Below are positions 1,106 through 44,867 of a DNA stretch of 64,000 bases, piece after piece. The translations under genes were made by a program, and so were the position numbers. Every line of letters starts with the position of its first letter. Position 1 is the first letter of the stretch. Origin of the DNA: a virus; IMG/VR virus record IMGVR_UViG_3300035670_000022, positions 91,914 to 155,913 of that record; one strand, given 5' to 3'. The notes under the pieces were generated by a model. That model was not told where the DNA came from, searched no databases, and saw nothing but the letters and a program-made list of their open reading frames with translations.

Positions 1106-1141
1106 TAGGAACTCCGGGGTGTGAAAGGTAATTAGCCCCAT

Positions 1142-1177
1142 AAAAGGGGGCCCCTACACTGATTAGGTGTAGGGGCC
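1142..1177 (-). terminator. GC-rich stem-loop with A-tract (minus-strand terminator-like)
   Basis: GGCCCCTACAC-TGATTAG-GTGTAGGGGCC (1149-1177), with AAAA on its left. Confidence 0.6.
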
Positions 1178-1310
1178 AAAGAGAAGATGAAGTCTTGCGG
1201 ATTTATTGCAAAAACGGGTTCTGCATATGGGCAAGACTGTTATATGACCCTCTTAAAAATCGCGGCATATTTTCATTTCCTATACGCCCATTAGTACAAA
1301 ATGTAGTAAT

Positions 1311-1450
1311 TGACCAACCAATCGACCAGTGACCAACCAATCGACCAGTGACCAACCAACCAATCGACCAGTGACCAACCAACCAACCAACCAATCGACC
1401 AACCAATCGACCAACCAATCGACCAGTAACCAACTTAGCCAATTAACCAA
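1311..1450. repeat. Non-coding tandem array of GACCAACCAATCGACCAGT-type units with variable numbers of CCAA tetramers
   Basis: About six ACCAATCGACCA cores separated by GTG/CCAA runs; strongly C/A-biased on the + strand; no unique spacers. Confidence 0.9.
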
Positions 1451-1467
1451 TACGTATACAGTCAAAC

Positions 1468-1498
1468 AAAAAGCTCTTTCTAGGCGCCTAGAAAGAGC
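1468..1498. promoter_or_regulatory. Perfect 26-bp palindrome next to the repeat array (minus-strand terminator or protein-binding site)
   Basis: GCTCTTTCTAGGC|GCCTAGAAAGAGC (1473-1498), preceded by AAAAA. Confidence 0.65.
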
Positions 1499-1546
1499 AG
1501 TAATCACCAAGCTATAATGACCGTGTAATTTATTCACCTTTGAAGT

Positions 1547-2338
1547 ATGACACAGTTGACTGTCCCGCAAACTTCTTTGTCTTATGAAGAGTTAAACGCT
1601 TTACTCCGCTTAGAGTTGAAAAAATCAGACAGTGGCTATCTATGTACGGTTAGGGGTCTAGCTCGATTATTAGGGCTTAGTGTTTCTACTATCGTAGATT
1701 CTAGGAAACAGCAGAATGGTATACCAAGGGGTGTGCTCCGCCGTTTGTTTGAGTGTTCGCCTAGCATTTTGCCAGAATCGCTACAACCTATATCAGGCTT
1801 TGATTACAGGAGTTCTGCGTTGTTAGGTAAGGCGAACACTCACACATATCTGTTACCTGAAGTTGTTGTTTCAGGTGTAATCAAGTTTTATGCGTATGAT
1901 GCGCGTAAGCCAATTCAGCGAGCTAAGCAACTTGATTATATGCTGAGCGCTATAGGTATAAGAGCGTTGTTTGATAGAGTTATGTCTTCTGAGTCGTCTT
2001 CTTTTGCTGTAGCGGCATTAGAGGTGACTTCTCCTGCTACTGAGGATACGCCGTGTGACAAGTTACTTTATCTCATACAGAAGCTAGAGTCTTTAAGATT
2101 TAGGCGAGAAGAGATTGTTTCCATATTTCGTACGAATGGAGTCGTTCAGCAGGAGTCTGGAGGTAATAGTTCCTATCGTGGTGTAGTGCCACATAAGAAG
2201 AAGTGGCGGGCGCAAATTAATGTTAATGGTGCTACTAGAGTCATTGGTGGCTATGATACCGAAGAAGAGGCAGCTAGGGCATATGATGCATATGCTAAGG
2301 TTTTGTACGGTTCTGCTGCAAAGTTGAATTTTTGTTGA
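1547..2338 (+). CDS. DNA-binding protein: N-terminal antirepressor/KilA-like region plus C-terminal AP2 domain
   Basis: C-terminal SSYRGV..KKKWRAQI.VNG....IG.YDTEEEAARAYD..A..LYG..AKLNF is the AP2/ERF signature. N-terminal TVRGLARLLG (HTH-like) and VIKFYAYDA...AIGIRA resemble cyanobacterial phage-type DNA-binding domains. No HNH motif seen. Confidence 0.85.
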   Translation: MTQLTVPQTSLSYEELNALLRLELKKSDSGYLCTVRGLARLLGLSVSTIVDSRKQQNGIPRGVLRRLFECSPSILPESLQPISGFDYRSSALLGKANTHTYLLPEVVVSGVIKFYAYDARKPIQRAKQLDYMLSAIGIRALFDRVMSSESSSFAVAALEVTSPATEDTPCDKLLYLIQKLESLRFRREEIVSIFRTNGVVQQESGGNSSYRGVVPHKKKWRAQINVNGATRVIGGYDTEEEAARAYDAYAKVLYGSAAKLNFC

Positions 2339-2361
2339 TATCTGTTTATTGATTGTTGGTT

Positions 2362-2397
2362 AGACTTTTACACATCTATGTGTAGAAGTCTTTTTTT
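2362..2397 (+). terminator. Rho-independent terminator
   Basis: AGACTTTTACACA-TCTA-TGTGTAGAAGTCT followed by a T-run, after the AP2 gene. Confidence 0.8.
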
Positions 2398-2411
2398 CTT
2401 TGTTTTGCGGC

Positions 2412-2458
2412 TGTACTCTTCTCTGTTTTTGTTCTGTGCCGTTGTAAGCTAGGTGTAG
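2412..2458 (+). promoter_or_regulatory. Candidate promoter region of the Dps operon
   Basis: TGTACTCTTCTCTGTTTT (identical at 24225-24242) and TGTAAGCTAGGTGTAG (near-identical at 19734-19750). Confidence 0.5.
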
Positions 2459-2479
2459 TATTCTTTCTTTTTTCCGACT

Positions 2480-2914
2480 ATGGACGAACAGTTATATAAG
2501 GGTTTATCGACTGTGCTTTGTTCTTTGCAGGTATATCGGATTAAGTTGTTAGGGTTTCACTGGAATTGTAGGGGGGACTCATTTTACGCCACGCATTTGT
2601 TAATGGAGAGGGCGTATGAAGCGGTGGATGGATTCATTGACCGTTTAGCGGAGTGTCTTCGTAAGTTTGGAGTAGTTCCTGCGGCGTTATCTGTGTATGC
2701 GTCATGTAGTGTTATCAAGGATGAGTTGAGTGTGCCGTCTATTCCTAGCATGTTAGTTATGGCTTCGGAGGATGGGGCAGTTTTATTTGAGTTAGCGCAG
2801 AGTATTATCAGTGTTGCTTCGCAGTCTAAACAGGAGGGTGTTGTTAACTTATTAGGAGACTTATGTGAGACGTTAGATACAGTGGTATATCTATTGAAGA
2901 GTGGGACGCTTTAG
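2480..2914 (+). CDS. dps: Dps / ferritin-like DNA protection protein
   Basis: FHWNCRGDSFYATHLLMERAYE...IDRLAE matches the Dps HWN..G..F...H...E..Y......D..AE ferroxidase signature; 144 aa. Confidence 0.85.
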   Translation: MDEQLYKGLSTVLCSLQVYRIKLLGFHWNCRGDSFYATHLLMERAYEAVDGFIDRLAECLRKFGVVPAALSVYASCSVIKDELSVPSIPSMLVMASEDGAVLFELAQSIISVASQSKQEGVVNLLGDLCETLDTVVYLLKSGTL

Positions 2915-2917
2915 GTT

Positions 2918-4063
2918 ATGGCGGAGTATGACTTTATAGATCCGAAGCACCCTAAGCTTGAGGATACGATGATCTGGGCGGAGATCTTGCCGTTTGATGT
3001 TATTCCGCAGATTGGTTATCTTAACGCCAAGTTTTATTCGGATCAGCAGTCTGCTGTTTATTACGATAGGAATAATGTTAATAGTTCTGTGGGGGGTGGG
3101 GTGTTGCGCACCCACAACAACTATTACATGACTTTAGCGGATTTACCGCTTAAGCTCCGAGCACGGGAGACGTTGGCGGATATGGAGATCTATATAGATA
3201 CACACACGTATGTTACAGGTACGCCGAGCATAACGAAATTTAGCACTGGTAAGGCTAGTCCTCCAATGGGGAACGGTTCGAGGTTAGAGCGATCTACATC
3301 TGTGCATGTATTTAAGGACATTCCGATACCCAAACCCAGCAATATGATTTGGGATGGCAGATTGCCATTTGCCATTAATACAGGAAGTATAGGAACGTCT
3401 TTAGCGTCTTCTATAGGTTCAGTGATTTTAGGGGGAGTTGGGGGTGCGTTAGGATCTGTTGCTGGGTCTTTATTTTCTGGGAGTATGGTGGAGGCTATTC
3501 GAAAGAAAGCGCGGGATGCGTTGGAGTCACCAAATCAAACGCCGTTTATCATATCTCACATAGGCGGGCTAGGGCATACAACTAAAGCGCCGGCTTTGAA
3601 CAGGAATTATGACGAGTATGACAGAATCATGCGGAAGTGGTTAGAAGAGACTTACAACGGCTCTGGGATTCCTGCGTTGCCAGGTTTAGGGAGTATTTTA
3701 CCAAGTGCTATTATGCAGATCCCTTTTTTAGACACTGATATTTTGTCTGGCACAGGATTTGTGGAGAAAGTGTTTTCCGGTGTTGCTGCAATTACGGACG
3801 GTCCGTATTTTACGGGGTGGAGTAATTTGAGTGTCTTTAAGGAGCTAGGCGAAGAGGTTCTTGACGGAGGATTAGATGCTATTACAAATCCTATTTATGA
3901 AGTATTAAAGACAGGGTTAGAGGATTATACGTATAATCTGATTTCAGAGGTAGTGCCTCCTGTTGTTGGCGACCAGATACAGAAAGTTATTTCTCCTGGT
4001 ATTGACACGGTGCTCGATTATGCACAAACCGGCACAGACATTATAGAGGGTCTATTTAAATGA
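2918..4063 (+). CDS. Hypothetical protein, probably virion/baseplate-associated
   Basis: 381-aa ORF with a Gly/Ser-rich hydrophobic segment; overlaps the PAAR-like gene start. Confidence 0.55.
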   Translation: MAEYDFIDPKHPKLEDTMIWAEILPFDVIPQIGYLNAKFYSDQQSAVYYDRNNVNSSVGGGVLRTHNNYYMTLADLPLKLRARETLADMEIYIDTHTYVTGTPSITKFSTGKASPPMGNGSRLERSTSVHVFKDIPIPKPSNMIWDGRLPFAINTGSIGTSLASSIGSVILGGVGGALGSVAGSLFSGSMVEAIRKKARDALESPNQTPFIISHIGGLGHTTKAPALNRNYDEYDRIMRKWLEETYNGSGIPALPGLGSILPSAIMQIPFLDTDILSGTGFVEKVFSGVAAITDGPYFTGWSNLSVFKELGEEVLDGGLDAITNPIYEVLKTGLEDYTYNLISEVVPPVVGDQIQKVISPGIDTVLDYAQTGTDIIEGLFK

Positions 4064-4536: not shown

Positions 4537-4992
4537 ATGTCTTTTTTCAAAACTCTGTTCTTTCTATTTCGTATTTTGTCACGCATACGTTTCAATGAAA
4601 CAGCCTGTATAGTTCCTTTATCTGCTGAGATGACTCTAATATTTGACTCGAGTGGTTCTATTCGGTTAGATATGACAGGAGACTTGAGGGTCAATGCTAA
4701 TTGCTTTTATTTTAATTGTGAAGATAGGGAGGTAGATTCTTCTAATGGCGAAGAAACAACTACGAATCAGTCAAGAGGTACACTCGCAACTTTGTCAGGC
4801 GGCAGAGAAGAATCAAATGCCGGTCGAGACCTTCTTGGAGTATCTTATCGAGTTCCACGACTTGAAGCATCTGGACAGTTTTATCCGACAGATACGCAAC
4901 AAGCAAGCGAACTACGAGTTATCTCCAGCAATGATGTCGCAACTTACGATTCTCAACACGTTCCTCACCACCAGACTGCGCCTTTAAGCTAA
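4537..4992 (+). CDS. Hypothetical protein (N-terminal half beta-strand-rich, spike-like; C-terminal half overlaps the RHH gene)
   Basis: ATG 3 nt after the PAAR stop; GSIRLDMTGDLRVNANCFYFNC resembles a spike beta-strand end. Confidence 0.4.
   Translation: MSFFKTLFFLFRILSRIRFNETACIVPLSAEMTLIFDSSGSIRLDMTGDLRVNANCFYFNCEDREVDSSNGEETTTNQSRGTLATLSGGREESNAGRDLLGVSYRVPRLEASGQFYPTDTQQASELRVISSNDVATYDSQHVPHHQTAPLS
4745..4987 (+). CDS. Ribbon-helix-helix (CopG/Arc-like) DNA-binding protein
   Basis: MAKKQLRISQEVHSQLCQAAEKNQMPVETFLEYLI fits the RHH pattern; GGGAGG upstream. Confidence 0.65.
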   Translation: MAKKQLRISQEVHSQLCQAAEKNQMPVETFLEYLIEFHDLKHLDSFIRQIRNKQANYELSPAMMSQLTILNTFLTTRLRL

Positions 4993-6201
4993 ACTCATTT
5001 CGATGGTTAGCTTGTGCTGTGCAGGTTGTTTGTTTCGAGTGAGTTTTACTTGTCCTAATTTATGGCTTGAGTGGATAGACGGGTGTCTGGAACTTTCTTT
5101 AGCGGATATGCAGATCTTGTCTTCGTTTAGTCCCCAAACGTACTCTGTTCCGAATCCTTCTATCTTGTGAGTTATTAGTGGATGGTAGCAGCAACTTTTT
5201 AGCCCTTCGACTATTCCGTCTCGCCCGACGTCTAATACCATCTCTGCGATGTTGCCGTCTTCTATGTGTTTGTAAAAGATAAGCGTATCGCTTTTTGTTG
5301 TCTCAAGGTCGAAGATATCTTCCTCGTCGATGTGTATATACCCGTCAGCGTTGAGTGCTTCTAAGGCTGTGCTTATTCTACGGTTTTCCACAGTAGGGAA
5401 CGTTACTAAATTTGGAAGTAATTCTCTAGCAGCTACCCAGATATCCTCTGTTATCTTCAAATAGATTTCGTGGTTGCTTTGTGCCTGATACGTGTAGCTG
5501 TTTGGGTCATTGAAAATGTGTTGTGTTTTAGGGTTACTCTGTAACGACTTGGGTAAGATATATACCTCTGGGTTTTTTGTTGTTAAGGGTAATCTAAGAA
5601 TCGACTCTTTGTCTCTGATGACCTTTTTGTTGTTGATCTCTTTTGATAGGCTGATCAGGTACTCTGTATACTTTTGCGGGTTCGGTTTCTTATTGATGAT
5701 GACTTTTATTAGAACCGGACTCTTCTCTCCGACAAACTGTATATAGATAATGCTGCCATGAGGAGAGTTTTCTAAGAAGGTTACGTCTTGTTCGTTAAAC
5801 CCGAAGTAGTGACTTTTCACTCCGTTGATACGAATCGGACGGCAGATGTCTTTGTAAACCTCATGCATATCTACATCTAAGATGCTGTAATAGGTGTTTG
5901 GACGATATCCGAAGTATGCTAGGTCGTACAGCTCTCTATTAAAGTTTTCGATTGATCCGACGGAGCCTATCCCCCGGAGCACGTCAAAGTCATAATTATA
6001 ATCAGGGTTAAAAGAACCTGCGGTTATATTCTTGTCTAGAAGCAAGCTGCTAATAGTGTACGGTTTAAGAATAAAGACGGGACCGCCGAACATACACGTT
6101 TCGATAACGTCTCTTTCTCGAATGTATGACGCGACAATTTCTGTGCCTCCCATCTCCTGTAATACAAAATCGCACTTTGTCTGTAGTTGTGTTGGGATCA
6201 T
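4984..6201 (-). CDS. Hypothetical protein
   Basis: 405-aa ORF at the distal end of the minus-strand cluster. Confidence 0.6.
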   Translation of the reverse strand: MIPTQLQTKCDFVLQEMGGTEIVASYIRERDVIETCMFGGPVFILKPYTISSLLLDKNITAGSFNPDYNYDFDVLRGIGSVGSIENFNRELYDLAYFGYRPNTYYSILDVDMHEVYKDICRPIRINGVKSHYFGFNEQDVTFLENSPHGSIIYIQFVGEKSPVLIKVIINKKPNPQKYTEYLISLSKEINNKKVIRDKESILRLPLTTKNPEVYILPKSLQSNPKTQHIFNDPNSYTYQAQSNHEIYLKITEDIWVAARELLPNLVTFPTVENRRISTALEALNADGYIHIDEEDIFDLETTKSDTLIFYKHIEDGNIAEMVLDVGRDGIVEGLKSCCYHPLITHKIEGFGTEYVWGLNEDKICISAKESSRHPSIHSSHKLGQVKLTRNKQPAQHKLTIEMSLA

Positions 6202-6306: not shown

Positions 6307-7179
6307 CTATCGATTTTTTGGTAGAGTAACTGGAGGCGGTAGGGAAGTAGGAGGTGTAGGTGGTTCTTCTTTTTTCCCAACTGGCGGTGCTGGTAGAGAT
6401 GGCGTTGTAGTCGGCTCTTCTTTTTTTCCTACTGGAGGTGCAGGAATGTTATCTACTCTATCTTGAACTGTAGTCGGGATATCTGTGCTTGGCGATTCTC
6501 CTCTTTTGGCTCCGTCAGATCTGAATTGAGTGCTGTCTACCGGCGGTTTTTGATGTGGGTACACTGTTGTTAAAACGTCAAGGGTGTAATAGGCTCTATC
6601 TGCTCGTACGGTATAAAATTTAAAGCCAACTACTACCCCTTCATAGGTATAACTTACGTCGGATGTTAAGGTCATTGTGATTGGTCTTCCCGATTGCACC
6701 ACTTTTCTATCGAAGAGTTTTGCTTTCATGAACGCGTTGTCTGTATCGTTGTAGGGTGGGTTAGCCATCCCGTCTAGCCTGTATACATGATTTAGAGAAG
6801 CGCGCTTAGCTAAGACAGCAATATTTTCGCTTCCGATAAATGCACCGACAAACTGGTGCATCGTGCTTTGAACACCAATTGTTTGAATAACAGGTGTAGA
6901 ACCGGGCACCAGGAAGTTTTTATACTTCATGTTTGTCATCGTTACGACCCCAGGCTTAACTTCAGGTACCCCGTTTTGGCCACGATTTGATGTCGCTTCT
7001 ATGGCCGGTAAGAGTGCAAAGTTGAAATAGTTATCTTTTTCTGTCTCGTTATCTATATATTTAATGACAAAGACGTTTTCCCTAGACTGGTTTAAAGTCT
7101 TGTCATCTAGCGGCGTCATCTGCTCCTTATTCAATATGGTCACTACTTGGCTGCGTCCCAAGTCTTCGAATATAGACAT
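6307..7179 (-). CDS. Putative tail-tube initiator (P2 gpU/Mu gp43-like) with Pro-rich C-terminal duplication
   Basis: PGSTPVIQTIG...FVGAF and YEGVVVGFKF...YYTLDV pattern; PAPPVGKKEEP occurs twice; lies downstream of the giant gene. Confidence 0.45.
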   Translation of the reverse strand: MSIFEDLGRSQVVTILNKEQMTPLDDKTLNQSRENVFVIKYIDNETEKDNYFNFALLPAIEATSNRGQNGVPEVKPGVVTMTNMKYKNFLVPGSTPVIQTIGVQSTMHQFVGAFIGSENIAVLAKRASLNHVYRLDGMANPPYNDTDNAFMKAKLFDRKVVQSGRPITMTLTSDVSYTYEGVVVGFKFYTVRADRAYYTLDVLTTVYPHQKPPVDSTQFRSDGAKRGESPSTDIPTTVQDRVDNIPAPPVGKKEEPTTTPSLPAPPVGKKEEPPTPPTSLPPPVTLPKNR

Positions 7180-7180
7180 C

Positions 7181-7717
7181 TTAAGCCTCGATGATTAGCT
7201 TGAAAGTTTGTTCAACGTCTTCTTGCACTTCTATAGGAGAGAAGTTCTCGTAATAGAGTGGAATCGCATTTATGTCTGATGGTAGATAAGAAGCGTAACA
7301 ACGACTCTTTATGCTTTCTATATCAACTACCGAGTGAATGATAAACACTCCTAACGAGCGAAATGCCGGTTCTGGTATCTGGTTGTGAGGCAGTTTTACT
7401 TCTAAGTAAAGTTTGCTTATTTGCTCTCGTCTTATATCAAGTATGGTCGGGTCATCCATCAAAAGAATATGTTTGCCGTCAATAACAACAGTGTCTTGGG
7501 TAGCACTTGACTTTTGAATTGCTGCTTTTCTGATCGGTATAGGAAAATAGATAAATATCTCGTTTAAGTTAAAGGTAAAAAGATCCGGCGCGGGGGGAAC
7601 TGCTTCTATGCTCCAGGGGCTGGTCTGTCCTAGTCCTAAGAGTAGCGGAAAGCAAGGGTCCAAAAATCTCTGGAGCCGTCTGTAATTAATTTCCTTAGGA
7701 TAGCCTTTGGTTGTCAT
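7181..7717 (-). CDS. Putative baseplate wedge/fibre-attachment protein
   Basis: LGLGQTSPW...PPAP...LNEIFIY, FRSLGVF and LYYENFSPI resemble myophage baseplate proteins; 1-nt overlap with the giant gene stop. Confidence 0.5.
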   Translation of the reverse strand: MTTKGYPKEINYRRLQRFLDPCFPLLLGLGQTSPWSIEAVPPAPDLFTFNLNEIFIYFPIPIRKAAIQKSSATQDTVVIDGKHILLMDDPTILDIRREQISKLYLEVKLPHNQIPEPAFRSLGVFIIHSVVDIESIKSRCYASYLPSDINAIPLYYENFSPIEVQEDVEQTFKLIIEA

Positions 7718-10700
7718 TAATCCTCGCCCTGCTCTATAGGTAGACTCTCTTCTTCTTCCAGCATACCTTCGGTAATCATGACGCGTTCAACTGCTGACAG
7801 GCTAGTATTATCGTCGTCGAACATAAAGTCACCTTCTGCTAGGATCGCCTCGAGAGATTCACCGGTATAGCCATCTGTGATGTCTATATCTTCTCCGTTG
7901 ATTGCTTCTGCAAGTGCTCTTCTTGATGCGGCAATGACATTATCTTTGACATTACTTACTGCCTGCACTGTCAGATCAAAAGCGGCGTCGTAGGTAAAGT
8001 CTGTTCCGGTAATTGGACGCTTGGTAACTACATTGGCTAGCGCCATACCTACAACCCCTCCCATTACTTCTAGTGCTCCCCTACCTAGGACACTGTCATC
8101 TCTTAGCAGTCTAGTGTTTTGCGCGAATTGGGATGAGGCATAGGCACCAGCTGTGTTCAATGCTTCAAACGCGACGGACTGAGCCAACCCGGCTGGTTTA
8201 CCTTCGGCACTAAACATGAACTCTCTAGCTCTAGCGACCCTTAACAGGTAGTTGGCTCTTCCTGTATTTCTCTCTGCGTCTTCCTGCTCTTTTTCTAAGT
8301 AGGAAGTTTGAGTCGGCTTTTCATCAACATCTGGTTCTATCGTTTGGGCTGTTCTAGCTGCAGTGCGGCGCTGCCGTTCAGTCCTTACTGTATCTCGTGT
8401 TAACGGCTCGTCAGGAGATATCGTGACTGGATTCTCTACTTGTCTGTTAGGGGGTCTTAAAGTTTCTGCTAACACTGTGCCGCTACCCTCGCCGCTTAAG
8501 ATTCTTTGAGTAACGCTTCCCTGTTGTTGACTTAAAGTTAAAGCGGATTCAATCATATTTCGAGCCAGCTCAGCTACTCGATCAGTTATAGGTACGTCGC
8601 CGCTCATGACACTAAAAAGAAGTGGAACGGCTAGTAGGGACAATGTGTTGCTACGCACCTGTTTCTGGTAAGCCTCTTCTTGAACCTTTGTTATATTCTG
8701 AGACTTCTTCTGCATATGCTGCGCTTTGATACTTTCTGCTACATTCTTCCCAATCTGCTCTTGAACGTCGTTCAGTGCTTGCGCTACTGGGTCGAAGTCT
8801 TCGTTAAGTCGGTTGACTGCCTCTTGCGGGTTGGACTGTACACTCTCTAGACGTTTTTGTCTTTCTTCCCTATATCGTTTGATTACATCAAGGGTCTCAG
8901 ATGCCTCTTCGTCTGAGGCGCCTTCCTGGATGCGCTGCCGCGCTTCAAGTTCTAGGTCATTTAAGGCAGCTAGTTCCTGTTGTATTTTGCTAGAACTGGC
9001 ACTGACCACACTTTTCTCTGCAATTATTTCTGCTACAGACTGTCTCTGAGTCGCTCCTGTTTCAACTTGTGTTGTTAAAATTTCTCCCAGAGTAACCAAA
9101 GACTGTCTTACTAACTCGTCTGCTCTTGATGTGTCCCCACCGGCTCTTTCTTGAGCCTGTTGTTGGATGAACTCCATTAAACCAGGCAGAGATGTACCGC
9201 CTCCAACTGCTAGTAAAGCACCTACTGCTTCTGCAGACCCACCTACGCTTTGAACTTCTGTCGCTAATCGGAAGATACTTTCGTTAAACGTCGTACCTTC
9301 TAGTTTGCCCCTAGAGATGTTGTATAAAATTGCTGTTTGAGCAATTTCATATTGTTGGGCTGTTCCCGGTGTCGCATATTGTCCGCTCTGTAGTCCTTGT
9401 ACCGCTCTATTTAAGGAGATTAGCTGGTCAAATAATCCAGCCTCTGTATCTGTCCCCACGTATATCTGAGCCTCGCGTTGAGTTTGATACTCAATCAGAG
9501 ATCTAAAGACCTCTTCGCCTAGTGTTGTGTTCGCATTACTGTCTGCTCTTGTTGCTGCGGCAGCAATAACGTCTCTTACTCGTTCTTGTTCTGCTCTCCA
9601 ACTTTGAGTCCTACTGTTTATGTCTGCTTCAACGTCTTTGGTAAGTTGACTAGCACCATCTGGCATTTGCTGCTCATATATTCCTCTTAGCGTCTCTTCA
9701 TAAGCAAGCGTTCTTGTTCGTAGATTTTCCTCTGAGTATCCGTCTTGTAGACGTTCAGCAAATTTCTGCAGCATTGGTTTGTAGTCTGCTGCTTCCAGCA
9801 CGGCGTTATAAATGAACTCGCTTCTGAATTTTGCCAGACTATCAGCCAGGGTGGTTTGAACAATAAACTCGTCAGTCGGAATCGGTCTATCTGGATCTTG
9901 CTCTATCATCTGTTCCTTTCTCTGTCTAAAGAAACCAGCAAAGGTGCTTTCTTTTAGCATCTCTGTCGCTGTTTTCTTGCCGCTCAGATACTCGTTGACC
10001 ATTTCTAGTGCTGCAAAGACTCGCAACTCTGAAGTGTCTAACTTGTTGTCGCTCACAACGACCTTTCCGTCTTCTTTAAATTCAAACCCGTAGTCTTGTG
10101 CTAAGACAGCCCCGGCTCTCGTACCTATGAAGCGTTCCATTACTTTAGACCGCTCTACTTCGTCTACGGTATTCATAATTGTGTCTAGTCCAACTAACGT
10201 CTTTCTTTCTCCTGATTGGGTCTCATAGGTATACTCAAATTCTGCAGCCTCCAAGGCAACAGACCCACCTTTCTTCGGTTTTAAGGCGGCGTCCCGCAGG
10301 AATTGTTGAACATCTAACAGTAAACCAAAAGTGGCATTAAGGCGCTTCTGTGTTTCTGCTTCGGCAATTTTATAGGGGACGGTTTGCTTGTCTTGATATT
10401 TTTGGAGCAGGTCATTAAAGATATCTAGCTGTGTTTGCGCCGCTGTTTGTTCTTTTGCTGTTTCTGCATTTTGCAGTCTTTGTCTTAGCACTAGCTGTTG
10501 TCGTTGCAGCGCTTCTACAAATGCTGTACCCATCTTGTCGTCTGTCCCATCGGCCGCCTCTTTCATTGCTCGCATAGAGGCTAGGTCTGACACTGCCATG
10601 CCTAATAGAGGCACCACTGTGTTGTATGTTTTACCAAGTAGTCCTGTACCTGTAGACCCAACGATGGCTTGGATGTTAGCAAAGGCGGAGGTGTTTAGTA

Positions 10701-13700
10701 AAGAACCAGCGACTTTGCTACTTACCTTACCTAAGTCTCCTAACGCTGCCAGTCTTTGACTCATTAAGGCGCTAAACTCAATTAACTTTTGGCTTTTCTC
10801 TTTGATTGATGCTTGGTTAAAAGACCGTAGCTCTGCGTCTGTTGAGTATTCGATAAAGTCTTTACCTACTTTATTGAGTGTCTCTGTATATGCCTGCTGC
10901 AGTTTATCATCGGCGGCACCTTCTCTAAACGTGATTCCTATATCTTGATTTAAAGTGATATCGCTGACTGTTGCTAAAGCTCGTCCCAAAGATGATTGGA
11001 CTTTATTTTGATTTCCATAGAAGTTAGCCTGCGTGTCTCTAGACTGTTTAATTAGAGACGGAATATCTTCATCAGTGATTGCGCCCACTCCGTAGGAAAG
11101 TCCTTCCATAAACTCAGCAGGTAACGCCATAAAGTCAGTAATGTAGTTACGGACTTTTTCGACACCTCTGTTTTCTACTTCTTGTCGGAGTTCAGCTAAG
11201 ACTTCTAACTTCTCTACATAGTCGTTGATTGTTTGTGTCAGTTTATTCAAAGATCGGGTTTGAGCGCCTACCGCAGACATTCTGATAATGCTGTGTGGCG
11301 CATCTTGGTTTTCTTCTGAGGCATAGAATTCTGCCTCTGCTTTTTTGACTTTGTCGAAGGCGTCAACAACTTCTCTTGTTGAGTCAGCCATTTTTGTAAA
11401 GGCTGCTTGGAAACTATCCCCGTCATAGTCCCCTAACTGGGTGAACTGGAATCCTAAGGACGAGATGAACATTCCAGTGTTTGATGTTGCTAGATCAGGA
11501 CTTTGTAAACTGCCGAACAGCTTGGCACGTTTAGCCATCTCTTCAGGAGATATCTGTTGATGAGCGTTCCCAAAAGTATGGAAGGTACCGCTAGGAGCCC
11601 CCTGTCTGTTAGCAGTTACCATGCTGCGGAATACCACCGATTCAAGTTGTTTATATCCGTCGTCTGTTGGCTCCCCTCCTATATCAGAGATCAGCGCTTC
11701 TTTTAGATCCTGCCCACGTACATAGCGACTTCTAGGCTCTTCTCTTGGTTTTGCTGCATTCTCACTTTCGACAGCTCCTGCTGCCTTTTTAGCGTTTGCT
11801 GCTTCTTCTGCTGCTTGAGCCGCCTGTTGCTCTTTTTGGAAAACAGGTTCTTTAACTCGTTCTAGTAAATCTTCATAGCTAAACGTTTTAGCATCTGGAC
11901 CCTGAATCACATCCGACAGGTTTTGCAGAATATTTGCGGTTAGCTGCGCATATTTAATGGTGCTCTGTACAATTCGGTTTTGGCTGTTTGGGTCAAGTAT
12001 CAAGTCGTTGACTAGTCGCTGACGATCTTCTCGAAGTCGGCTTATTTCTGCGGATGACTCTGGGTCTGTAGCTGCGCTCAACTCTGCTATGCGATTATCT
12101 ATTCTGACTGTTTCAGAAGACACTGCTTTTTGATGACTGTCTATTAAACGATCAACAATCGTGTCCATCAGCGTTCTAAGCCCAGAGCCGCTATTCTCTT
12201 TGAGAAGTGTATCTATTCTTGAGCCTAACGCTACCTCTGACTGACCGACTAAGAAACTGTTCATCGCAATAAACGAAGATCCTGTCAGACTTAGACGATC
12301 TGCCATAGTTTGTCTAAAGGTGTCTTTGTTTTTGGACAGATGTAATGTTTGCTCTTTTGCTATCTCAGCGCTATTAACTAAGGTGTTATACACGTCGAGC
12401 TGCTCAGCGGATAAGTTAACTTCACGTCTTTCCATAACAGCTTGAGCCATTTCTTCAAACAGACCCGTGTCGTTTGCTCTAGCTAAACTGTCCGCTAAAC
12501 CATATTGGGCTCTTAAAGCCTCATGGGTGTGTCCTGGAAATACTAAAGACATTCTCTCTAGAACGTCTAGTCCTAGCATCCAGCCTTCAATCTCAGTTTC
12601 AGGCATGATTTGCGCTTTGTATGTTCCTTCATCTGTTGGACTAGGCTGTATTTGCAGCACAGGAATCGTGACACTGTAGGTTTTGTCCACGGAGTCGATA
12701 ATGGAACGTGCTCTAGACTGTTCCTCTGTTGTGCCTAGTCCTGCTTCTAAGAACTGTCTGGCATACTCTCTTAACTTTTGCTTTCCTTGAATATATTCTT
12801 TACCTGGGTCTATATCCGCAGACTGCTTAAGTTTGGTATCGACTTCATTTTTAATTAGGTTATACAGAAGTCTCTCTTGGATCTCCGGCGCATCTTTAAT
12901 ATATGCAGATACTCGCTCTTCGATGCTCGTTAGATTGTTGATAAGAGTAGAGGTTTCGGAAAGTGTTTGAGACGCGGTTAGTCCTGTTTGTGTCTTGAGG
13001 ACTTCTTTGAATTTCTCTCTCAAAAGAAGCTGTACGAAAGCCGTACGCTTTGTATCTGCTGAGAGTCTTGTCAACTCTACTTCTGACAAGGAGCCCGTTC
13101 CGTCTCCTAACACTAGAGCCATCTCAGTAAATCCTAAACTGGCTAGCTCTAATTGATCTTCAACCGGTAGGGAGCGGATGGTTCCTTTTTGCTCTTTAAC
13201 AATTTTAGCTATATCCTCTTTTGTAGCGTTATCTGGAACGGCTATTTTTCTGGATTTAAGAATGGCGATCGCCCGCTTAGTTGTGTCAGGACTTAATTTG
13301 TCTGCCCAGTTTTCAATAGTTGCATCTGCTTCAGTAACCCCGGGGTCATTTTCAATGAGGGAGCTACTAAACATAGCTGCTTCCACCTCTTGTAGAGAAC
13401 TCAGCTGACTTAGGGCTCTGTCTGTTATACCGCTTAGTAAATCCTCTACTTGCCCACCGACTATAGTCTCGGAGTTTTTGAGACGACGTAAATAGTCTTT
13501 TGTAATAGCTCTGGCTCTTTCTGTTCGATCTAAGTTAGTTCTATCGCTAGAGACTCGTCTAGACCACTCCATTTGTTGAAGAGCAGATTCATATCCTTCT
13601 GCATCGCTGCGGATAAACTGAAAGAAAACTTCTTCTGCCGGAGCGATATCTTTAGCTCGGCTGCTTACATATCTAGGAAAGACGTTGTCTCTAGATCGAG

Positions 13701-16700
13701 CAGTAAAGTCTCCGTAAGACTGGCTAAAGGACAGGCTGAAGACGTTTGTCTCTACCTCTTGCTTGATTGCACGCCGCATTCTGTTACGTCTAGCTCTATC
13801 TCCGGCGGTTTGTGCATCGATTCCTGACTCAGATTCGTTTTCTAAGTCGGTGTAGTTTTTGTACCCCATTAAGATAGCGTTGGTTCTTCTGATGCTGTAC
13901 ATCTCGCTGACGTCTGATTGGTCTAGAGTTGTGCCTAGTCCTTCTTGCAGCATGCTGCCCAGAATAACCATGGTCTGTTGTAAAGACCTCGCTTTTTCTT
14001 TATCATCTCCGCTGTATGTATATAGCTGAAGCTGCTTATCAGTTAGAGCATTTGCGTAATGTCCTTCTAGAGCAGTGGTATCTTCCATACCTGTCGGCAC
14101 GGTGATTTTGTTGATGGTCATGTCAAAAGGCAGAGCCATTCTTAATCCGAACTGCCCCAGACCTCGCATCATTGTCAGAGTATTTTGCAGCTCGTTTTGT
14201 AGTGTTTCTAGCTCTGACGCTTCGGTATCTGTTCTAGAAGACTTGTCTTGCAGCTTCCAGATTCTTTCTATAGAAGGCATTTCTATCCCTAAAGCTAGGG
14301 TTTGCTGACGCACAGCTTTTCTGTATACGTTTGCCTCTTTGCCGTACTCTTGGTCTCTATAGAGTAAAAGACTCTCTGCGTCTAGTCCTCCATAATTCAT
14401 AAAGATCTCAGTCAAATTCTTTCTAATTCCAGGAGTATAGGCTTTACTCATAAACAGATCATTCTCAACGCCTGCGGCATTCATGAGCCCCTCTATCGAC
14501 TTATCCTTAAAGTCAATCGCCGTGTCGCTCATGTAGGCGATCGACTGCTTTTTCATTTCTTCTAGGCTTGATATCTTTCTTTCATGGACGGCTTTTTGCA
14601 TGGGATTTAACTGTCCTTTTTCGTTTTCTATGCCGAGTATGATTTTGTTAAAGACCGTGCTTATCTCTCTGTCGACTTTTCTAGCCACTTCTTCGTTCTT
14701 TAGATAGACCCCAAAGAAACCGTCTGTGTTGTACGCAATTTCTGTCACTGCTTTTCCTAACAAGCGGCGTTCCGGATTGATATCAGTTAATACGTCTTTT
14801 GCTGCATTTAGGAAGAAGGCCATTACGCTGGCTGATCGAGACTTGGTCTCGTCGTAGTAGTAACCTCCATCAGGCATCTGTTTCCCATACTGGTCTCTAG
14901 TCGTTTTAAAGAGATTTTCTGTTTTTTGTGCCAACTTAGCTCTGGCTGCATCACCTTCTTTTCCTGCTTTTAAAGCGGCGCCTATGGTATCTATAAGTGC
15001 TTGCTCTGGTGTCTTGCCACTTTCAACTTCTCCTTCATCTACAAGACTCATTATCCCTTCGTATACAGCTATAGTAGGCGCGAAGTCTCTTTGCAGTTTA
15101 TCGCTTTGGTTTTTCTGCGCCAGGTTTTTAGCTGATGCTGTTCCTTCTACTATCAGTTTTAGTGCTGATTGGGCTTGTCTTCTGTTGCTAATAGCGCCGC
15201 GCTCATAGGCCCCTTTAAGCAAAGCAGATATCTTATTCGTTTCTGTAGCACCACTTGTTGTGTCTCCTAGCATCATCAAGGATAATGCCTCTGCAATTTT
15301 GTATCCTGCTGTCTGTTGATCCGTATCTGTTATCATCTTCCAGGTGTTTGACTTTTCGCCTTCACGTAGAAAGCCTAATCCAGCCTTAAACACAAAGCCT
15401 TTCATCTGCCCCATAGTTATGGCTGCAAAAATCTCTTTGCCGGTAATCTCAGTTGGCAGATTTTCATAGCCGACTTCTGAGCCGTATACGGCTCCTATTT
15501 CAAGAAAGTAGTCTCTATTCGTTCCTTTAAACGGACCTTTAGCCTCTGCCGTCCGCTGGCCTGTTTTGAGATCCGCAATATTTACCATCTCTAAGTTATA
15601 GGTCACCATGTTTGACCTTAAATCCTGCTCACTAGACGTTGGCGTCTTATACAGGTAACTGATGGCATTCATCTCTCTTCCGCTATAAGCCGGGGCTTTA
15701 ACCCTAAAGGGTTGGATTCTAGACTTCTCTCCTAGACTTGTATAAGTATTAATACCATCTATGTAAAAGGCGTTCTCGCCGTCATTCAGGCTGCCTATTT
15801 TTTTAAGCCATCCATCTGTAGATGACTTCATTTGATAAACGCCTTTCTTGAGAACGAAGCCTCCTTCTCTAAAATCTACAGCTTCTGCAAAGGAAACGGA
15901 TTTATGCCCCTCTTGACTAAGTCGACGCATCTCTTTAAGCGCCTTCTTGATATCTGCCGATTTGAGATTCTCCATTGAGAAGTCTTTATCGATGCTGTAT
16001 TGCATCTCACCTATATCACTCGTGAGTTTTATGAAAGTCAGCACCTTATTTTCTAGTTGTCTATTTGTCTCGCTAAGGTGAGGCGCGTCTTGTAGTTTTA
16101 CGTCTCTAGCTACAAAGATAGTTCCCACTTGTAATTTTTCCCGTATGAGCGCATTAAACTGCGCCGGGGTCATATTCATCTCTTTAGTAGATAAAGCTGT
16201 TTGAGACCGGTAGGTTTTTAAATAGGCATTTTCATTCGAGTTTGCATACTCGGTGTTGAGATAGCTGTAATCAGACATCTCGTTGATGCCCATATTGACC
16301 ATTACAAGTTTGGGAGCCTCTATGAAACCCTGAGTCACTTCATCTGTATCTATGGCGATACTACGGGCATACTTGACTATGTCCGCGTCTGGATTCTCCA
16401 TTTGGTATTTTTTCAACAGCTCAAATTGAGCCGAAGGCAGACCGAAGGGTATTACCCCTCCTACAAGATCCGAGCCTTCTATATCTATACCCGCCTTAGC
16501 CGCTTCTTGGGTCTTCTGCATAAATCCACTTTCATCTTCAGCCCCAAAAGAGCGTAAGAAAGAGGCAAAGTCTAGGTTTGCAGGTAGAAACGGTCTGACT
16601 GACTTTAAGTTTTTAAGTCGTTGTATGTTTTGCTCAGTTTTGTCATAGGGGGTGTAAAGCATAACTGCCTTTTGTTTAACCCGATCCCAAGAGCCTTCTT

Positions 16701-24201: not shown

Positions 24202-24278
24202 ATATTTAAAGTTTTACTTTTCTTTGTACTCTTCTCTGTTTTAGTTGACGCACTTAATTGAATTAAAAAGAAGGGCTA

Positions 24279-36169: not shown

Positions 36170-39055
36170 GTGCATATGGATCTCGCCTACTCAACCATTA
36201 AAGACGGTCAGTACGATATTGGAGCAAGATGTCATCAGCAGAGGCAAGGCGCTGTACCTGTGTGGGTAGTTACAGATACTCACGGTAATATTCTTATCAA
36301 TAATCAAGCCAGTCGAGAAAATGGACACACTTGGGTTGTGTCCAAAGGACGTATCACGGTTACTCGTTTTTGGTCTGCCTCTACAGCTATGATTGTTTGC
36401 TGCGTGGAGCATCTTAATCCTGATGCGACTAAAGGCATCTACACCCCTTTTCCAGAACTATCTCGAGATGCCACTCGTATCTTAGCAGGCGGAACTACGT
36501 ACGGTAAGATTGACTATCCCCTAGATAAAAATGATGAGATTTGCATCTGGTGTGGATATATAGAGATGCTGCGTCCCGTTACTATTAACGATTTAAAAGC
36601 AGGAAACTTACTTCGCACATTTGTTGGCGTAGTCGACACTATTGTTGGTTCTGGTGGAGCTAACCAGGGTTCAACTCTTATCATTCAGTGTCGAGATAGA
36701 ATGAAGTACTTAATGGATTCTCTCTCTACTTATAACTCTACTGACTCGTCTCCGTTAGGACTTCGAAATGAGGCGCCTGAAGGCGACCAGACCGGATTAG
36801 ACACGGCTTCTAAAGAGGGTAAGAAAATAAGTCGAGTCGAAGTTTTACTTGAGATAGCGCGACGCTCTATTGGACACTTACAAAATGCCTATTCTATAAG
36901 CGTTAAAAGTCTAGGCGTAAGCGGTAATCCCTGTGACAGCGTTTGTGGTTTAAGAATTTCTGAGGGGTATACCCGTGATTTTATCTCTGATGTCGAGTCA
37001 GATGATGATATCTATGCAGTATATGACGCTCCATTAGGAACCCGCGATTATTTTGGTGTAGAGCCTACTAGTTTTACTGACCCTCCACCTAAAACATCGT
37101 ATTTACCGTCAGGAGCCAATGTCGGTTGGGTAGATGATTCTCGTTTAAATGTACGAGAGCAGATCGACAAATATTATAAATTAAGCAAAATGTATAATCT
37201 GCCCTCTACCCAGAATATTTTTAATAACATTGGTAACTCGTTGAATGAAACGCCAGAAACTGTTCAACGAATGAGAGAGACGTTTCTTAAAGAATATGAA
37301 GAGGCATATGGGAAGCCTTTTGAAGAGCCTGTAGAGCAGCAGACAGATCGAGAGGCTAATGCCCGCCGCATGTTAGATGAAGTAGATAGTTCGTTGAATA
37401 CTAAGCAGCTATTCTCTAAGTATTACGGCTTGTGGTCGACTGTGCTTTTCCTAGATAGACAGATGATTCCTGCTGATGTTATTGGTAATCCTCAAAAGAT
37501 GAAAGAGTTTTTCTTGCGACGATATAAACAGGATAAAGGCGTGGAGTATGCTACGACGATACCTGAGTTTCAAGAGGGACTAGATAAAATAGATCAAGCT
37601 AAGGAAAGTGCAACCACGCCGTTTATTGGGGGCACTACTGTCACTCCTTCTGGACTTACAGATGTGGAACTAGCCATTCGAGCGCGACATCCTGCCATGA
37701 ATATTATTACGGGTCGATACCCGTTTGATATTGGAGCAACTGGTAATAATTTTGCAGGCATGTCAGCGCAAGTGACTGACCGAATCGCGCTTGAATATAT
37801 TAAGTTTTTAGCCATGCAAGAGCCTTGGCCTACAGAATTCTTCTGTGATCACCGCTCTGGGGAGTATTGGTACGCGCCGCGTGGTTTAGATATTACTGGT
37901 TTAGAAGATCCTAAACGGTTTTATCGGACTTATTTTATGCGGCATGCGTCAGAAGAGGCACTTGCTTATCTTCGACAAGAGTATGCACACCCATGTCAGG
38001 CTCTTCTTCTTTTTCGGGAAGAGTCTTCTAGCATTAACTGGCGTAGCAACATTATTGTTACCAACACACCAAGTAATAATTCTGCTGAGGGTGTTGCCGT
38101 TCATCTTAAAACTGTACCGCCATTCCTAAAGGGAAGGGCTTTTGCTTGCACTTACTATACTGTGAATGACGAGACTATCTCGGATAACGACTCAACGGCT
38201 CTCTTTGCTACAGCTTTAGCCTTTGCTCGTCTTTACGGGAAAGAGTTAAAGGCTGCTTCTATGCACATTGTTGGAGATCCTTCTCTTTGTCCTGGGGAGT
38301 GTGTTCAGGTGCTGGGGTCTAGTTTGTATGGTGGCGGCTATTTACCCGCTTTACAGGACAAAACCAAAACACAATGGCGATGGGATCGTGATGCAATCAC
38401 TGATTACTACGGTGACTACAAAGACATACATAAAGAGCTGCTCCAAGATCTGCGCACATCTTCTGATTCTGGGCAGCCATTGTCTGAAGAGCAGATGGAT
38501 AAGGTTCTAAGAGAGTCTTTTGCTGCAGGGTCTTCTAGTAGTAATGATGAGTCTTCTATGACTCCTAATGAGATTATTGCAAAGTACTCTGACTTAGCGC
38601 AGAAGGAAGGTATCAGTATCCCCTCTCTAGCTGGGGCATCTGACGCAGAGAAAGCTACGTCTCTTAAAGAAGAGTACCTTAAGGCATATCAGCAAAAGTA
38701 CAACAAGTTGCCGGACGACCAGAATGCTCAAACTTCTTCTACCAATCCTGCTACTGATTCTTCTACCAATCCTGCTACCGATTCTTCTACCAATCCTGAA
38801 AAGACTAACACTCTTCGCGCTTTACAGAAACAAGCGAAGGATACTGCTCCAGTGTTGACTTCGACACTTACTCAAGCGGAATTAATGTGTCCAGCTACTT
38901 TTGTGGGTAATACTGGTAGTAGTAATGTAGACTCACCCATTGATATTCAAGAAGACCCAAAAACCATTTGGCGTGTTGAAGCTATTATTCACAAATTCAA
39001 CGATAGCGCCGGAGATGGGTATAAAACTGAAGTTGCTCTTTTAGCTCCTTGGTAA
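36170..39055 (+). CDS. Baseplate hub protein (gp27/gp44-like) with large insertions
   Basis: FVGVVDTI...IQCRDRMKYL, IVGDPSLCPGECVQV, WRVEAIIHKF...GYKTEV. Confidence 0.7.
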   Translation: MHMDLAYSTIKDGQYDIGARCHQQRQGAVPVWVVTDTHGNILINNQASRENGHTWVVSKGRITVTRFWSASTAMIVCCVEHLNPDATKGIYTPFPELSRDATRILAGGTTYGKIDYPLDKNDEICIWCGYIEMLRPVTINDLKAGNLLRTFVGVVDTIVGSGGANQGSTLIIQCRDRMKYLMDSLSTYNSTDSSPLGLRNEAPEGDQTGLDTASKEGKKISRVEVLLEIARRSIGHLQNAYSISVKSLGVSGNPCDSVCGLRISEGYTRDFISDVESDDDIYAVYDAPLGTRDYFGVEPTSFTDPPPKTSYLPSGANVGWVDDSRLNVREQIDKYYKLSKMYNLPSTQNIFNNIGNSLNETPETVQRMRETFLKEYEEAYGKPFEEPVEQQTDREANARRMLDEVDSSLNTKQLFSKYYGLWSTVLFLDRQMIPADVIGNPQKMKEFFLRRYKQDKGVEYATTIPEFQEGLDKIDQAKESATTPFIGGTTVTPSGLTDVELAIRARHPAMNIITGRYPFDIGATGNNFAGMSAQVTDRIALEYIKFLAMQEPWPTEFFCDHRSGEYWYAPRGLDITGLEDPKRFYRTYFMRHASEEALAYLRQEYAHPCQALLLFREESSSINWRSNIIVTNTPSNNSAEGVAVHLKTVPPFLKGRAFACTYYTVNDETISDNDSTALFATALAFARLYGKELKAASMHIVGDPSLCPGECVQVLGSSLYGGGYLPALQDKTKTQWRWDRDAITDYYGDYKDIHKELLQDLRTSSDSGQPLSEEQMDKVLRESFAAGSSSSNDESSMTPNEIIAKYSDLAQKEGISIPSLAGASDAEKATSLKEEYLKAYQQKYNKLPDDQNAQTSSTNPATDSSTNPATDSSTNPEKTNTLRALQKQAKDTAPVLTSTLTQAELMCPATFVGNTGSSNVDSPIDIQEDPKTIWRVEAIIHKFNDSAGDGYKTEVALLAPW
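38735..38798. repeat. 24-bp tandem repeat (x2.7) encoding SSTNPATD
   Basis: TCTTCTACCAATCCTGCTACYGAT units. Confidence 0.9.
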
Positions 39056-39059
39056 ACTG

Positions 39060-43199: not shown

Positions 43200-43213
43200 C
43201 GCGTATTTATCCT

Positions 43214-44833: not shown

Positions 44834-44867
44834 CACCAAGATGTAGATTCTTCAGTTGGAGTAAAGC

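Follow-up and report, generated by a model that had tools for sequence, protein, structure and literature searches.

A giant protein encoded between head and baseplate-like genes of a myovirus carries a candidate single-chain two-barrel RNA polymerase

We have analyzed a 64,000-nucleotide (nt) stretch of viral DNA, hereafter the window, i.e., the last 64 kb of the 155,913-bp IMG/VR record IMGVR_UViG_3300035670_000022 (positions 91,914 to 155,913; completeness estimate 88%). It contains a single open reading frame (ORF) of 3989 amino acids (aa), and the central part of this giant protein (aa ~1120-3140) carries, in the canonical order, the motifs of the two-barrel RNA polymerases. As judged from its sequence, the module is most likely a DNA-dependent RNA polymerase of the kind represented by YonO, QDE-1 and the crAss-like phage protein gp66. 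We give a probability of about 0.65 to the complete reading, namely that the protein contains a two-barrel polymerase core of a very divergent single-chain family, that it is probably borne by the virion, and that a phospholipase D (PLD)-like domain is fused at its N-terminus. The positions of all features are listed in Table 1; residue i of the giant protein starts at nt 19686-3(i-1) of the window. The eight motifs listed by a first-pass annotation of this DNA, which had proposed a single-chain two-barrel RNA polymerase, are all present where it had placed them.

Eight residues are universal in two-barrel polymerases, i.e., an Asp and two basic residues in barrel B, an Arg and a Pro in barrel A, and the D-x-D-x-D triad (Ruprich-Robert and Thuriaux, PMC2919709). 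In barrel B the Asp is Rpb2 D837 or QDE-1 D709 and the basic residues are Rpb2 K979/K987 or QDE-1 R738/K743; in barrel A the Arg and Pro are Rpb1 R446/P448 or QDE-1 R962/P964, and the triads are Rpb1 D479/481/483 and QDE-1 D1007/1009/1011 (PMC2919709). Along the giant protein D1139 comes first, R1378-x4-K1383-G second, R2694 with a Pro after it third, and D2753-x-D-G-D last, which is the order of the single-chain enzymes. The putative basic pair of barrel B, R1378 and K1383, is separated by five residues as in QDE-1 and YonO, and D2753, D2755 and D2757 make up the putative triad. The reference motifs, read from the sequences, are N-F-E-D-S and R1069-H-G-N-K-G in Escherichia coli beta; G351-R-S-V-I, N-R425-A-P and N-A-D460-F-D-G-D in E. 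coli beta'; R266-x4-K271-G, S-Q314-F-K316, R492-S-P and D535-N-D-G-D in YonO; and K1012-G-V-Y, G1235-G-S-F-I, R1322-I-P and D1361-F-D-I-D in gp66.

These residues stand out within a large family. A word-indexed search returned 10 homologues of 3734-5389 aa, all of them with L-G-D-[YN]-D-G-D-S-F-Q, and a profile of aa 2290-3300 compared with 1.84 billion representatives returned 103 relatives, nearly all of 3000-5400 aa. The relatives form about 100 clusters of phage proteins, and scans of IMG/VR and of metagenomes provided some 40 loci that carry them, on contigs of up to 250 kb; none was found in a contig scan of 185,579 bacterial and archaeal genomes. Over the 1011 positions of aa 2290-3300, an alignment of 76 sequences is 100% conserved only at G2469, R2694, G2752, D2753, D2755, G2756 and D2757, followed by G3018, Y3021, N3022, Q3128, R3131, D3132 and K3136 at 97-98%. 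Similarly, among 63 sequences aligned over aa 1001-1717, R1023, D1139, K1383 and K1429 are 100% and R1378 is 98% conserved. The first-pass annotation had named loss of D-x-D-G-D among homologues as a reason to abandon the idea; the motif is kept in the 76 aligned sequences and in every full-length relative, with N or L replacing the preceding Gly in two family members. The same few invariant residues recur, collinear, in a large family, and chance alone does not account for the motifs.

Only two deposited phages are relatives, namely the Microcystis phages Ma-LMM01, which is distant, and MaMV. The matching protein of Ma-LMM01 is gp080 (3562 aa), annotated as a "hypothetical protein"; it is a true homologue, and its gene likewise adjoins those for portal, protease and capsid. 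The pairwise alignment with gp080 starts at the Asp motif and covers the C-terminal half of the module only, at ~22% identity; L-G-D-F-D-G-D-T-F, L-G-K-T-Y-N-T and L-R-D-A-I-K-P-K (the candidate trigger-loop base) are kept. A blastn search of the DNA against phages gave no match.

To compare the giant protein with proven enzymes we built alignments of the YonO and gp66 families and aligned blocks with hhalign, with column shuffles as controls. Three blocks found the expected counterparts in exact register. The best match of aa 1365-1445 was YonO 262-327 (score 17.1 against 12.6 +/- 1.3 for shuffles, 0/30 reaching it), with R1378, K1383, Q1427 and K1429 on YonO R266, K271, Q314 and K316 and the Gly after K1383 on G272. 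That of aa 2685-2790 was YonO 489-556, with D2753-D2757 on D535-D539, and again none of 30 shuffles reached the score; the candidate triad was aligned both to YonO D535/D537/D539 and to gp66 D1361/1363/1365. Finally, aa 2440-2500 matched gp66 1210-1252 best (score 21.1 against 11.8 +/- 1.8, 0/25, about 5 standard deviations), with T-G-S-S-F-I-A-M-N-S-F facing N-G-G-S-F-I-Q-L-S-N-F (gp66 1233-1243) and G2469 on G1235. A concatenated core gave long collinear alignments with both YonO and gp66 and paired K-G-V-Y with gp66 K1012-Y1015.

Several results weigh against a polymerase. With hhalign the blocks 1105-1200, 2985-3035 and 3110-3150, i.e., half of those compared, miss their expected counterparts; the first includes D1139, which was not aligned to Rpb2 D837 or QDE-1 D709. 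The whole region compared with YonO reaches a probability of ~0.1%, which is not significant, and the concatenated core does not clearly beat its shuffles, 3/20 reaching the score against each of YonO and gp66. The Pro of barrel A is at +4 from the Arg in the window protein (R-Q-G-A-P) and not at the canonical +2, and the connector between the two barrel regions measures ~1000 aa, against ~140 aa in gp66 and QDE-1. AlphaFold gave an unusable model of aa 2290-3300 from 15 alignment rows (mean predicted local distance difference test score, pLDDT, 51.5); with 41 rows the mean rose to 63.1, the catalytic region with the barrel-A motifs remaining below 50-70 and the triad loop below 50. With this second model, Foldseek against the PDB returned nothing at E <= 0.001 and VIA-align wide returned only helical-hairpin matches (aa 2753-2845, model residues 464-555). 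The check by AlphaFold and Foldseek that the first-pass annotation had suggested was carried out on aa 2290-3300. Four short strands lie where barrel strands are expected (aa 2473-2477, 2484-2487, 2710-2712 and 2738-2742), at low confidence, and neither a pair of double-psi beta-barrels nor a polymerase match appeared.

These results would suit a protein that is no polymerase at all, i.e., a giant with a structural, ejection or polyvalent cargo function, its G-D-x-D-G-D being a loop that binds a metal (e.g., Ca2+) or part of an unrelated enzyme, and its other resemblances being coincidences of short motifs. Neither family nor PDB nor fold searches produced a polymerase: Pfam and PHROG scans of the entire 3989 aa gave noise only, no match above cut-off to PF05183 (RdRP) or PF00623 (RNA_pol_Rpb1_2) was found, and the profile of aa 2290-3300 retrieved only coiled-coil noise from PDB sequences. 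Most of the modeled region is also predicted to be helical. We nevertheless consider this explanation quite improbable. Chance fails to account for an invariant triad, an Arg ~59 aa before it and R-x4-K-G ~1370 aa before it in the canonical order, or for the catalytic motifs of YonO and gp66 being hit in exact register by three independent blocks. Moreover, proven members are equally invisible to identical searches. In the same set-up gp66 against YonO reaches only 7.6% probability, and weak sequence signals are therefore normal in the two-barrel superfamily. The YonO profile retrieves no polymerase from PDB sequences either, and for this reason the silence of the databases weighs little; the missing PF05183 match says nothing on membership, because this Pfam family detects Bacillus subtilis YonO itself only below cut-off. 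The first-pass claim is supported in part: the signature is present, collinear and invariant in a large family, and the fold and the activity are putative. A canonical beta' was rejected. An N4/T7-type polymerase was set aside as there was no PF00940 match, a result that is uninformative because the control genomes had no match either.

Within the preferred reading of a two-barrel polymerase, barrel B (aa ~1130-1440) would supply D1139, the basic pair R1378/K1383 and K1429. In the candidate acidic motif S-D..Y.N, comparable to N-F-E-D-S of E. coli beta, D1139 is 100% and G1133 and N1144 are 98% conserved (63 sequences). Further on, G1282 (96%) and Y1284 (82%) belong to K-K-G-V-Y, of which K-G-V-Y is the same as the invariant 1012-1015 of the gp66 family, and Q1427-x-K1429 aligns to the invariant YonO S-Q314-F-K316, 46 aa from the K-G motif here and 45 aa in YonO. 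For one of the eight motifs the proposed counterpart was rejected: KLQVGTIFVAR, taken at first for the equivalent of beta GDILVGK, is weakly conserved (G1188 80%) and no alignment supports the pairing. The block K-T-E-Q-x-I-Q-R1023-L-K-N1026-L-K-S-V-R1031-P, with N1026 and R1031 at 98%, is among the most conserved of the family and has no nameable counterpart in known polymerases.

Barrel A (aa ~2460-2770) would supply R2694 and the Mg-binding D2753-x-D2755-G-D2757. Its candidate first strands include G2469-S-S-F-I, to be compared with G-R-S-V-I at 351 of E. coli beta', with G2469 conserved in 100% and S2477 in 88% of the 76 sequences. Directly before them, aa 2290-2455 form the only part of the model folded with high confidence (pLDDT 80-95), a small alpha/beta domain with a long beta-hairpin and helices. 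The candidate barrel would be split by an insertion of ~190 aa, poorly conserved, helical in the low-confidence AlphaFold model and ranging from ~0 to 900 aa in length across homologues; the shortest of these, such as the 3055-aa protein of locus L011 or that of L005, have almost none of it. After it R2694, present in 76/76 sequences, precedes the first triad Asp by 59 aa, against 35 in beta', 43 in YonO and 39 in gp66; a Pro follows the Arg at +4 in 64/76, at +3 in 23/76 and at +2 in 12/76 sequences. hhalign did not place R2694 on YonO R492 or gp66 R1322. Beyond the triad, G3018-K-T-Y-N would act as bridge-helix element and R3131-D-A-A-L-K-P-K as trigger-loop element. G3018 and N3022 fall on YonO G593 and N597 in the concatenated alignment, the block alone not being significant. 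The candidate trigger-loop base can be compared with YonO D625-F-A-K628 or gp66 D1612-N-A-K1615, the alignment leaving the counterpart unfixed, and the 41-row model has helices near aa 3060-3090.

The remaining parts of the giant protein also have conserved features. Judged from sequence, a PLD-type phosphodiesterase or nuclease domain with two HKD-like motifs precedes the polymerase module. The window protein's own N-terminus has no Pfam match and the assignment rests on homologues, since they pass the PLDc_2 and NgoFVII-PLD thresholds there: the aligned region of one of them (P0004) scores 32.8 bits with PF13091 (PLDc_2) and 32.2 bits with PF09565 (RE_NgoFVII PLD), both above cut-off, and that of another (P0007) 26.8 in the PLD scan, just below it. 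The long connector has conserved patches of its own, e.g., G1866-M...T-x-L-E-G-H-Y. In the C-terminal ~700 aa there are two conserved hydrophobic stretches, with S3683, P3688, F3691, E3873, M3881 and R3890 conserved in alignment A1, which may serve in membrane insertion or in the tail lumen.

We found genes for a portal, a prohead protease, a major capsid protein, a tail sheath, a baseplate wedge and the large terminase, and because sheath, baseplate wedge, portal and capsid genes are present it is a myovirus, as the first-pass annotation had supposed. Directly after the large terminase gene starts a third giant ORF (window 53424-64000, + strand, open at its 3' end, at least 3525 aa) that gave no Pfam match. 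Elsewhere in the record, a 2296-aa protein (record positions 38382-45272, +) rich in immunoglobulin-like and PKD repeats probably serves to decorate the capsid or a fibre, or in adhesion, and an intein carrying a LAGLIDADG-like domain splits the gene of the ribonucleotide reductase large subunit (13723-16143, -).

In more than 10 related phages the order capsid-protease-portal-u2-u1, giant gene, d1-d2-d3 is conserved (u1, u2 and d1 to d3 being the genes that flank the giant gene upstream and downstream). The product of d1 matches PF25691 (baseplate wedge 3 tail fibre network component) with 31.4 bits and PHROG 1394 (virion structural protein). From this gene position we consider it likely that the giant protein is packaged in the virion, because it has a fixed place in the morphogenesis block, a setting comparable to that of gp66 among virion genes confirmed by proteomics. 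It could alternatively occupy the slot of the tape measure, i.e., be a two-barrel polymerase carried in the tail like gp96 of phage P23-45 and not an ejection protein internal to the head. P23-45 provides the precedent (10.1101/2022.12.01.518664), the gene downstream is baseplate-wedge-like (PF25691), the C-terminal ~700 aa are helical with hydrophobic stretches, and neither Pfam nor PHROG recognized a tape-measure gene elsewhere in the tail module. In addition, u1 and u2 border the giant gene in all relatives and overlap by 85 nt, u2 being in the -1 frame, so that they are a possible frameshift pair; in four loci (L006, L009, L010 and L014) they lie co-directionally upstream of the giant gene, as tail chaperones do. 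Yet in the window and in locus L002 the pair is encoded on the opposite strand, and neither gene matches a chaperone family. The giant protein likewise has no tape-measure family match in Pfam or PHROG. On its other side the giant gene is bordered most closely by those for portal, protease and capsid, and 12 kb separate it from the sheath and tube genes, after which comes a 961-aa ORF that is a possible tape measure. Tape measures span ~0.15 nm of tail per residue. With 3989 aa the tail would measure ~600 nm, far beyond the tails reported for this phage group, and we regard a tape-measure role as unlikely.

The phage is not independent of the host polymerase, because it encodes a complete sigma-70-family factor of its own (record positions 47153-48154, +, outside the window) with regions 1.2, 2, 3 and 4 (Sigma70_r2 78.6-81.7 bits). 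For the same reason a polymerase of its own is not obviously needed. That the group is not generally credited with one, as the first-pass annotation said, agrees with the Ma-LMM01 literature, which credits the host sigma-70 polymerase only (PMC5780444). In the Ma-LMM01 transcriptome study, sigma-70-like promoters were predicted in silico before all gene classes (PMC5780444), a mild argument against the need for a phage polymerase. The sigma factor and the sigma-70-like promoters of Ma-LMM01 early genes would be compatible with a two-barrel polymerase that is not an early transcriptase, i.e., a non-virion enzyme, one making primers or small RNAs, an RNA-dependent one, or a counter-defence system with the PLD-like nuclease. 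The triad of the form D-bulky-D-G-D, matching YonO D-N-D-G-D, fits this as well, and it is found also in eukaryotic RNA-dependent enzymes such as QDE-1. QDE-1 is reported to have both DNA- and RNA-dependent activities (PMC9508822). Replication is covered by a family A DNA polymerase that the phage encodes as well, and a replicative two-barrel DNA polymerase was rejected on the same ground. Against such roles, the linkage to head and baseplate genes is kept in all relatives, and all experimentally studied giant phage polymerases in the literature consulted (N4, crAss phi14:2 and P23-45) are virion early transcriptases; we consider these roles very unlikely.

In the preferred reading of a virion-borne RNA polymerase, the giant protein would be a late product that is assembled into the virion and enters the cell together with the DNA, as suggested by its gene being fixed between head-morphogenesis and baseplate-like genes, and would then transcribe the first phage genes from a DNA template. 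Later transcription would be handed to the host polymerase with the phage sigma factor. An injected polymerase first, and the host core with the phage sigma afterwards, is the most economical scheme that we can infer.

A candidate phage-specific promoter or regulatory site is the motif (T/G)TACTCTTCTCTGTT(T), with 19 exact copies in the genome, 18 of them on the + strand and nearly all intergenic. Taken as the reverse complement, the copies precede the start codons of leftward non-structural genes by 24-100 nt. No copy was found in the loci obtained from relatives, and the motif cannot be assigned as a promoter read by the giant protein because the phage sigma factor is an equally good reader. 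A different repeat is found at ~1312-1417 of the window (record positions 93225-93330), where six to seven direct copies of about GACCAACCAATCGACCA occupy an intergenic region.

Single-chain two-barrel polymerases known from phages are YonO, gp66 and gp64 and gp96 of P23-45. YonO, a DNA-dependent RNA polymerase of 839 aa from prophage SPbeta, has both barrels on one chain as proposed here, and shares the D-x-D-G-D triad with a bulky residue or Asn in second place, R-x4-K-G followed 45-46 aa on by [S/G]-Q-x-K, and, ~40-60 aa ahead of the triad, an Arg with a Pro after it. By contrast, the giant protein is ~5 times longer, has the ~1000-aa connector, the ~190-aa insertion in barrel A, the Pro at +4 and the N-terminal PLD-like domain, and lacks a significant whole-length profile match to YonO. 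Its gene also lies in a structural block, while in the SPbeta record yonO is not part of the block of tail and virion genes.

The virion RNA polymerase gp66 of the crAss-like Cellulophaga phage phi14:2 (2180 aa, PDB 6VR4) is also a giant. Most of its chain has no known fold, its gene lies among virion genes, and G-x-S-F-I-x-[LM]-[SN]-x-F, K-G-V-Y and the Asp triad are in common. It differs by D-F-D-I-D, R-x-P and the ~140-aa connector, and belongs to a phage of Bacteroidota that is not a myovirus. Homology at the family level is not detectable, since no gp66-family proteins were among the matches of the aa 2290-3300 profile search, all of which carry the giant family's own motifs. Homologues of gp66 are found fused to NADAR, 2OG oxygenase and PIF1 helicase domains, and in the present phage such domains occur on a second giant protein of 4182 aa (record positions 75453-88001, -, outside the window), with NADAR, 2OG-Fe(II) oxygenase, DUF4326 and PIF1-like helicase domains. 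Because of these shared fusions the second giant may be injected cargo too.

The chain of gp96 of the Thermus phage P23-45 joins a polymerase module to a long helical virion protein; its gene adjoins tail or baseplate genes, and P23-45 likewise has a second route for transcribing its later genes. There the polymerase is N-terminal, while in the giant protein it is central with the PLD-like domain in front, and P23-45 is a siphovirus with an 800-nm tail. The virion RNA polymerase gp50 of coliphage N4 (3500 aa) is likewise a giant and shows the biology expected here, since it is packaged, injected and transcribes the early genes, whereas its fold is unrelated, being reportedly of the T7-like single-subunit type.

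Table 1. Features of the giant ORF, its flanking genes and the repeated motif (positions in the window unless given as record positions).
Feature	Residues (aa)	Position (nt)	Strand	Remark
Giant ORF	3989 in all	7717-19686	-	GTG start; single open frame
First HKD-like motif, H284-x-K286 ... G-S-Q305-N306		18763-18837	-	H284, K286, Q305, N306 invariant in alignment A1
Second HKD-like motif, H524-S-K526 ... S545-x-N547		18046-18117	-	invariant in alignment A1
Conserved block around R1023	1016-1032	16594-16641
LVMVNMGINEMSDYSYL	1127-1143	16258-16308	-	beta-like motif of first-pass annotation
G1133...S-D1139...N1144		16255-16290	-	candidate barrel-B acidic motif
KLQVGTIFVAR	1184-1194	16105-16137	-	beta-like motif of first-pass annotation
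K-K-G-V-Y	1280-1284	15835-15849	-	shared with gp66 family
LKTGQRTAEAKG	1373-1384	15535-15570	-	beta-like motif of first-pass annotation
G-x-R1378-x4-K1383-G-P		15532-15561	-	candidate basic pair of barrel B
Q1427-x-K1429-G-F-x-F..G1436		15379-15408	-	aligns to YonO S-Q314-F-K316
Alpha/beta domain (predicted)	2290-2455	12324-12819		before candidate barrel A
R2458...G2469-S-S-F-I-A-M-N-S-F...G2488-x-R		12217-12315	-	candidate first strands of barrel A
RLSLTGSSFIAMNSFLVGQSEVALG	2464-2488	12223-12297	-	beta'-like motif of first-pass annotation
Variable, mostly helical insertion	~2500-2685	11632-12189	-	inside candidate barrel A
NRQGAP	2693-2698	11593-11610	-	beta'-like motif of first-pass annotation
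N-R2694-Q-G-A-P2698-S-G		11587-11610	-	conserved Arg(-Pro) of candidate barrel A
GDYDGD	2752-2757	11416-11433	-	putative catalytic motif of first-pass annotation
L-G-D2753-Y-D2755-G-D2757-S-F-Q-A-A		11401-11436	-	candidate Mg-binding triad
Q-A-x-x-G3010..G3013....L-L-G3018-K-T-Y3021-N3022-T..P		10609-10671	-	candidate bridge-helix region
LLGKTYN	3016-3022		-	motif of first-pass annotation
Q-Q3128-F-L-R3131-D3132-A-A-L-K3136-P-K3138		10273-10308	-	candidate trigger-loop base
RDAALKPKKG	3131-3140		-	motif of first-pass annotation
C-terminal part, two conserved hydrophobic stretches	~3683-3700, ~3873-3900	7987-8640	-	read from sequence
d1		7181-7717	-	downstream, co-directional; synteny in loci L002-L014
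d2		6307-7179	-	as d1
d3		4984-6201	-	as d1
u1		19835-20605	+	divergent from giant gene
u2		20521-21060	+	divergent from giant gene
Portal		21070-22533	+	divergent from giant gene; PHROG 113
TACTCTTCTCTGTT motif, window		2415-2428, 24228-24241, 47900-47913
TACTCTTCTCTGTT motif, elsewhere (16 copies)		record positions 612, 2226, 7914, 7954, 9249, 25071, 27346, 37657, 39925, 68718, 69843, 72740, 73211, 74302, 75348, 86097

Full-text literature searches found no paper that gives gp080 or its relatives a polymerase or any other function, and the giant protein would be a new, deeply divergent variant of the single-chain two-barrel enzymes, distinct in build and host range. We propose tentatively, and with slightly less than even confidence, that the Ma-LMM01-type Microcystis phages and the related aquatic myoviruses (~100 protein clusters) inject a 3000-5400-aa protein combining a PLD-type nuclease and a single-chain two-barrel RNA polymerase of a new, deeply branching lineage. 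Giant virion polymerases would then be of four independent kinds, the other three being those of N4, crAss and P23-45, and contractile-tailed cyanophages would have their first. For bloom-forming Microcystis, Ma-LMM01 and its relatives serve as model phages, and their gp080 has so far been "hypothetical"; if the proposal is true, the picture of a transcription that depends on the host sigma-70 polymerase only is incomplete, and aquatic myoviruses have, as an entire group, a polymerase of their own. If the signature is real, D2753, D2755, D2757, R2694, R1378 and K1383 are concrete residues for mutation. The giant protein is also a test case for finding such enzymes when Pfam, PDB profile searches and AlphaFold are silent. 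Single-chain two-barrel enzymes bear on the origin of the cellular and RNA-interference polymerases, and to these the family would, if the reading is true, add a new and deeply separated branch, unusual in build for its PLD fusion, its 1000-aa connector and its split barrel.

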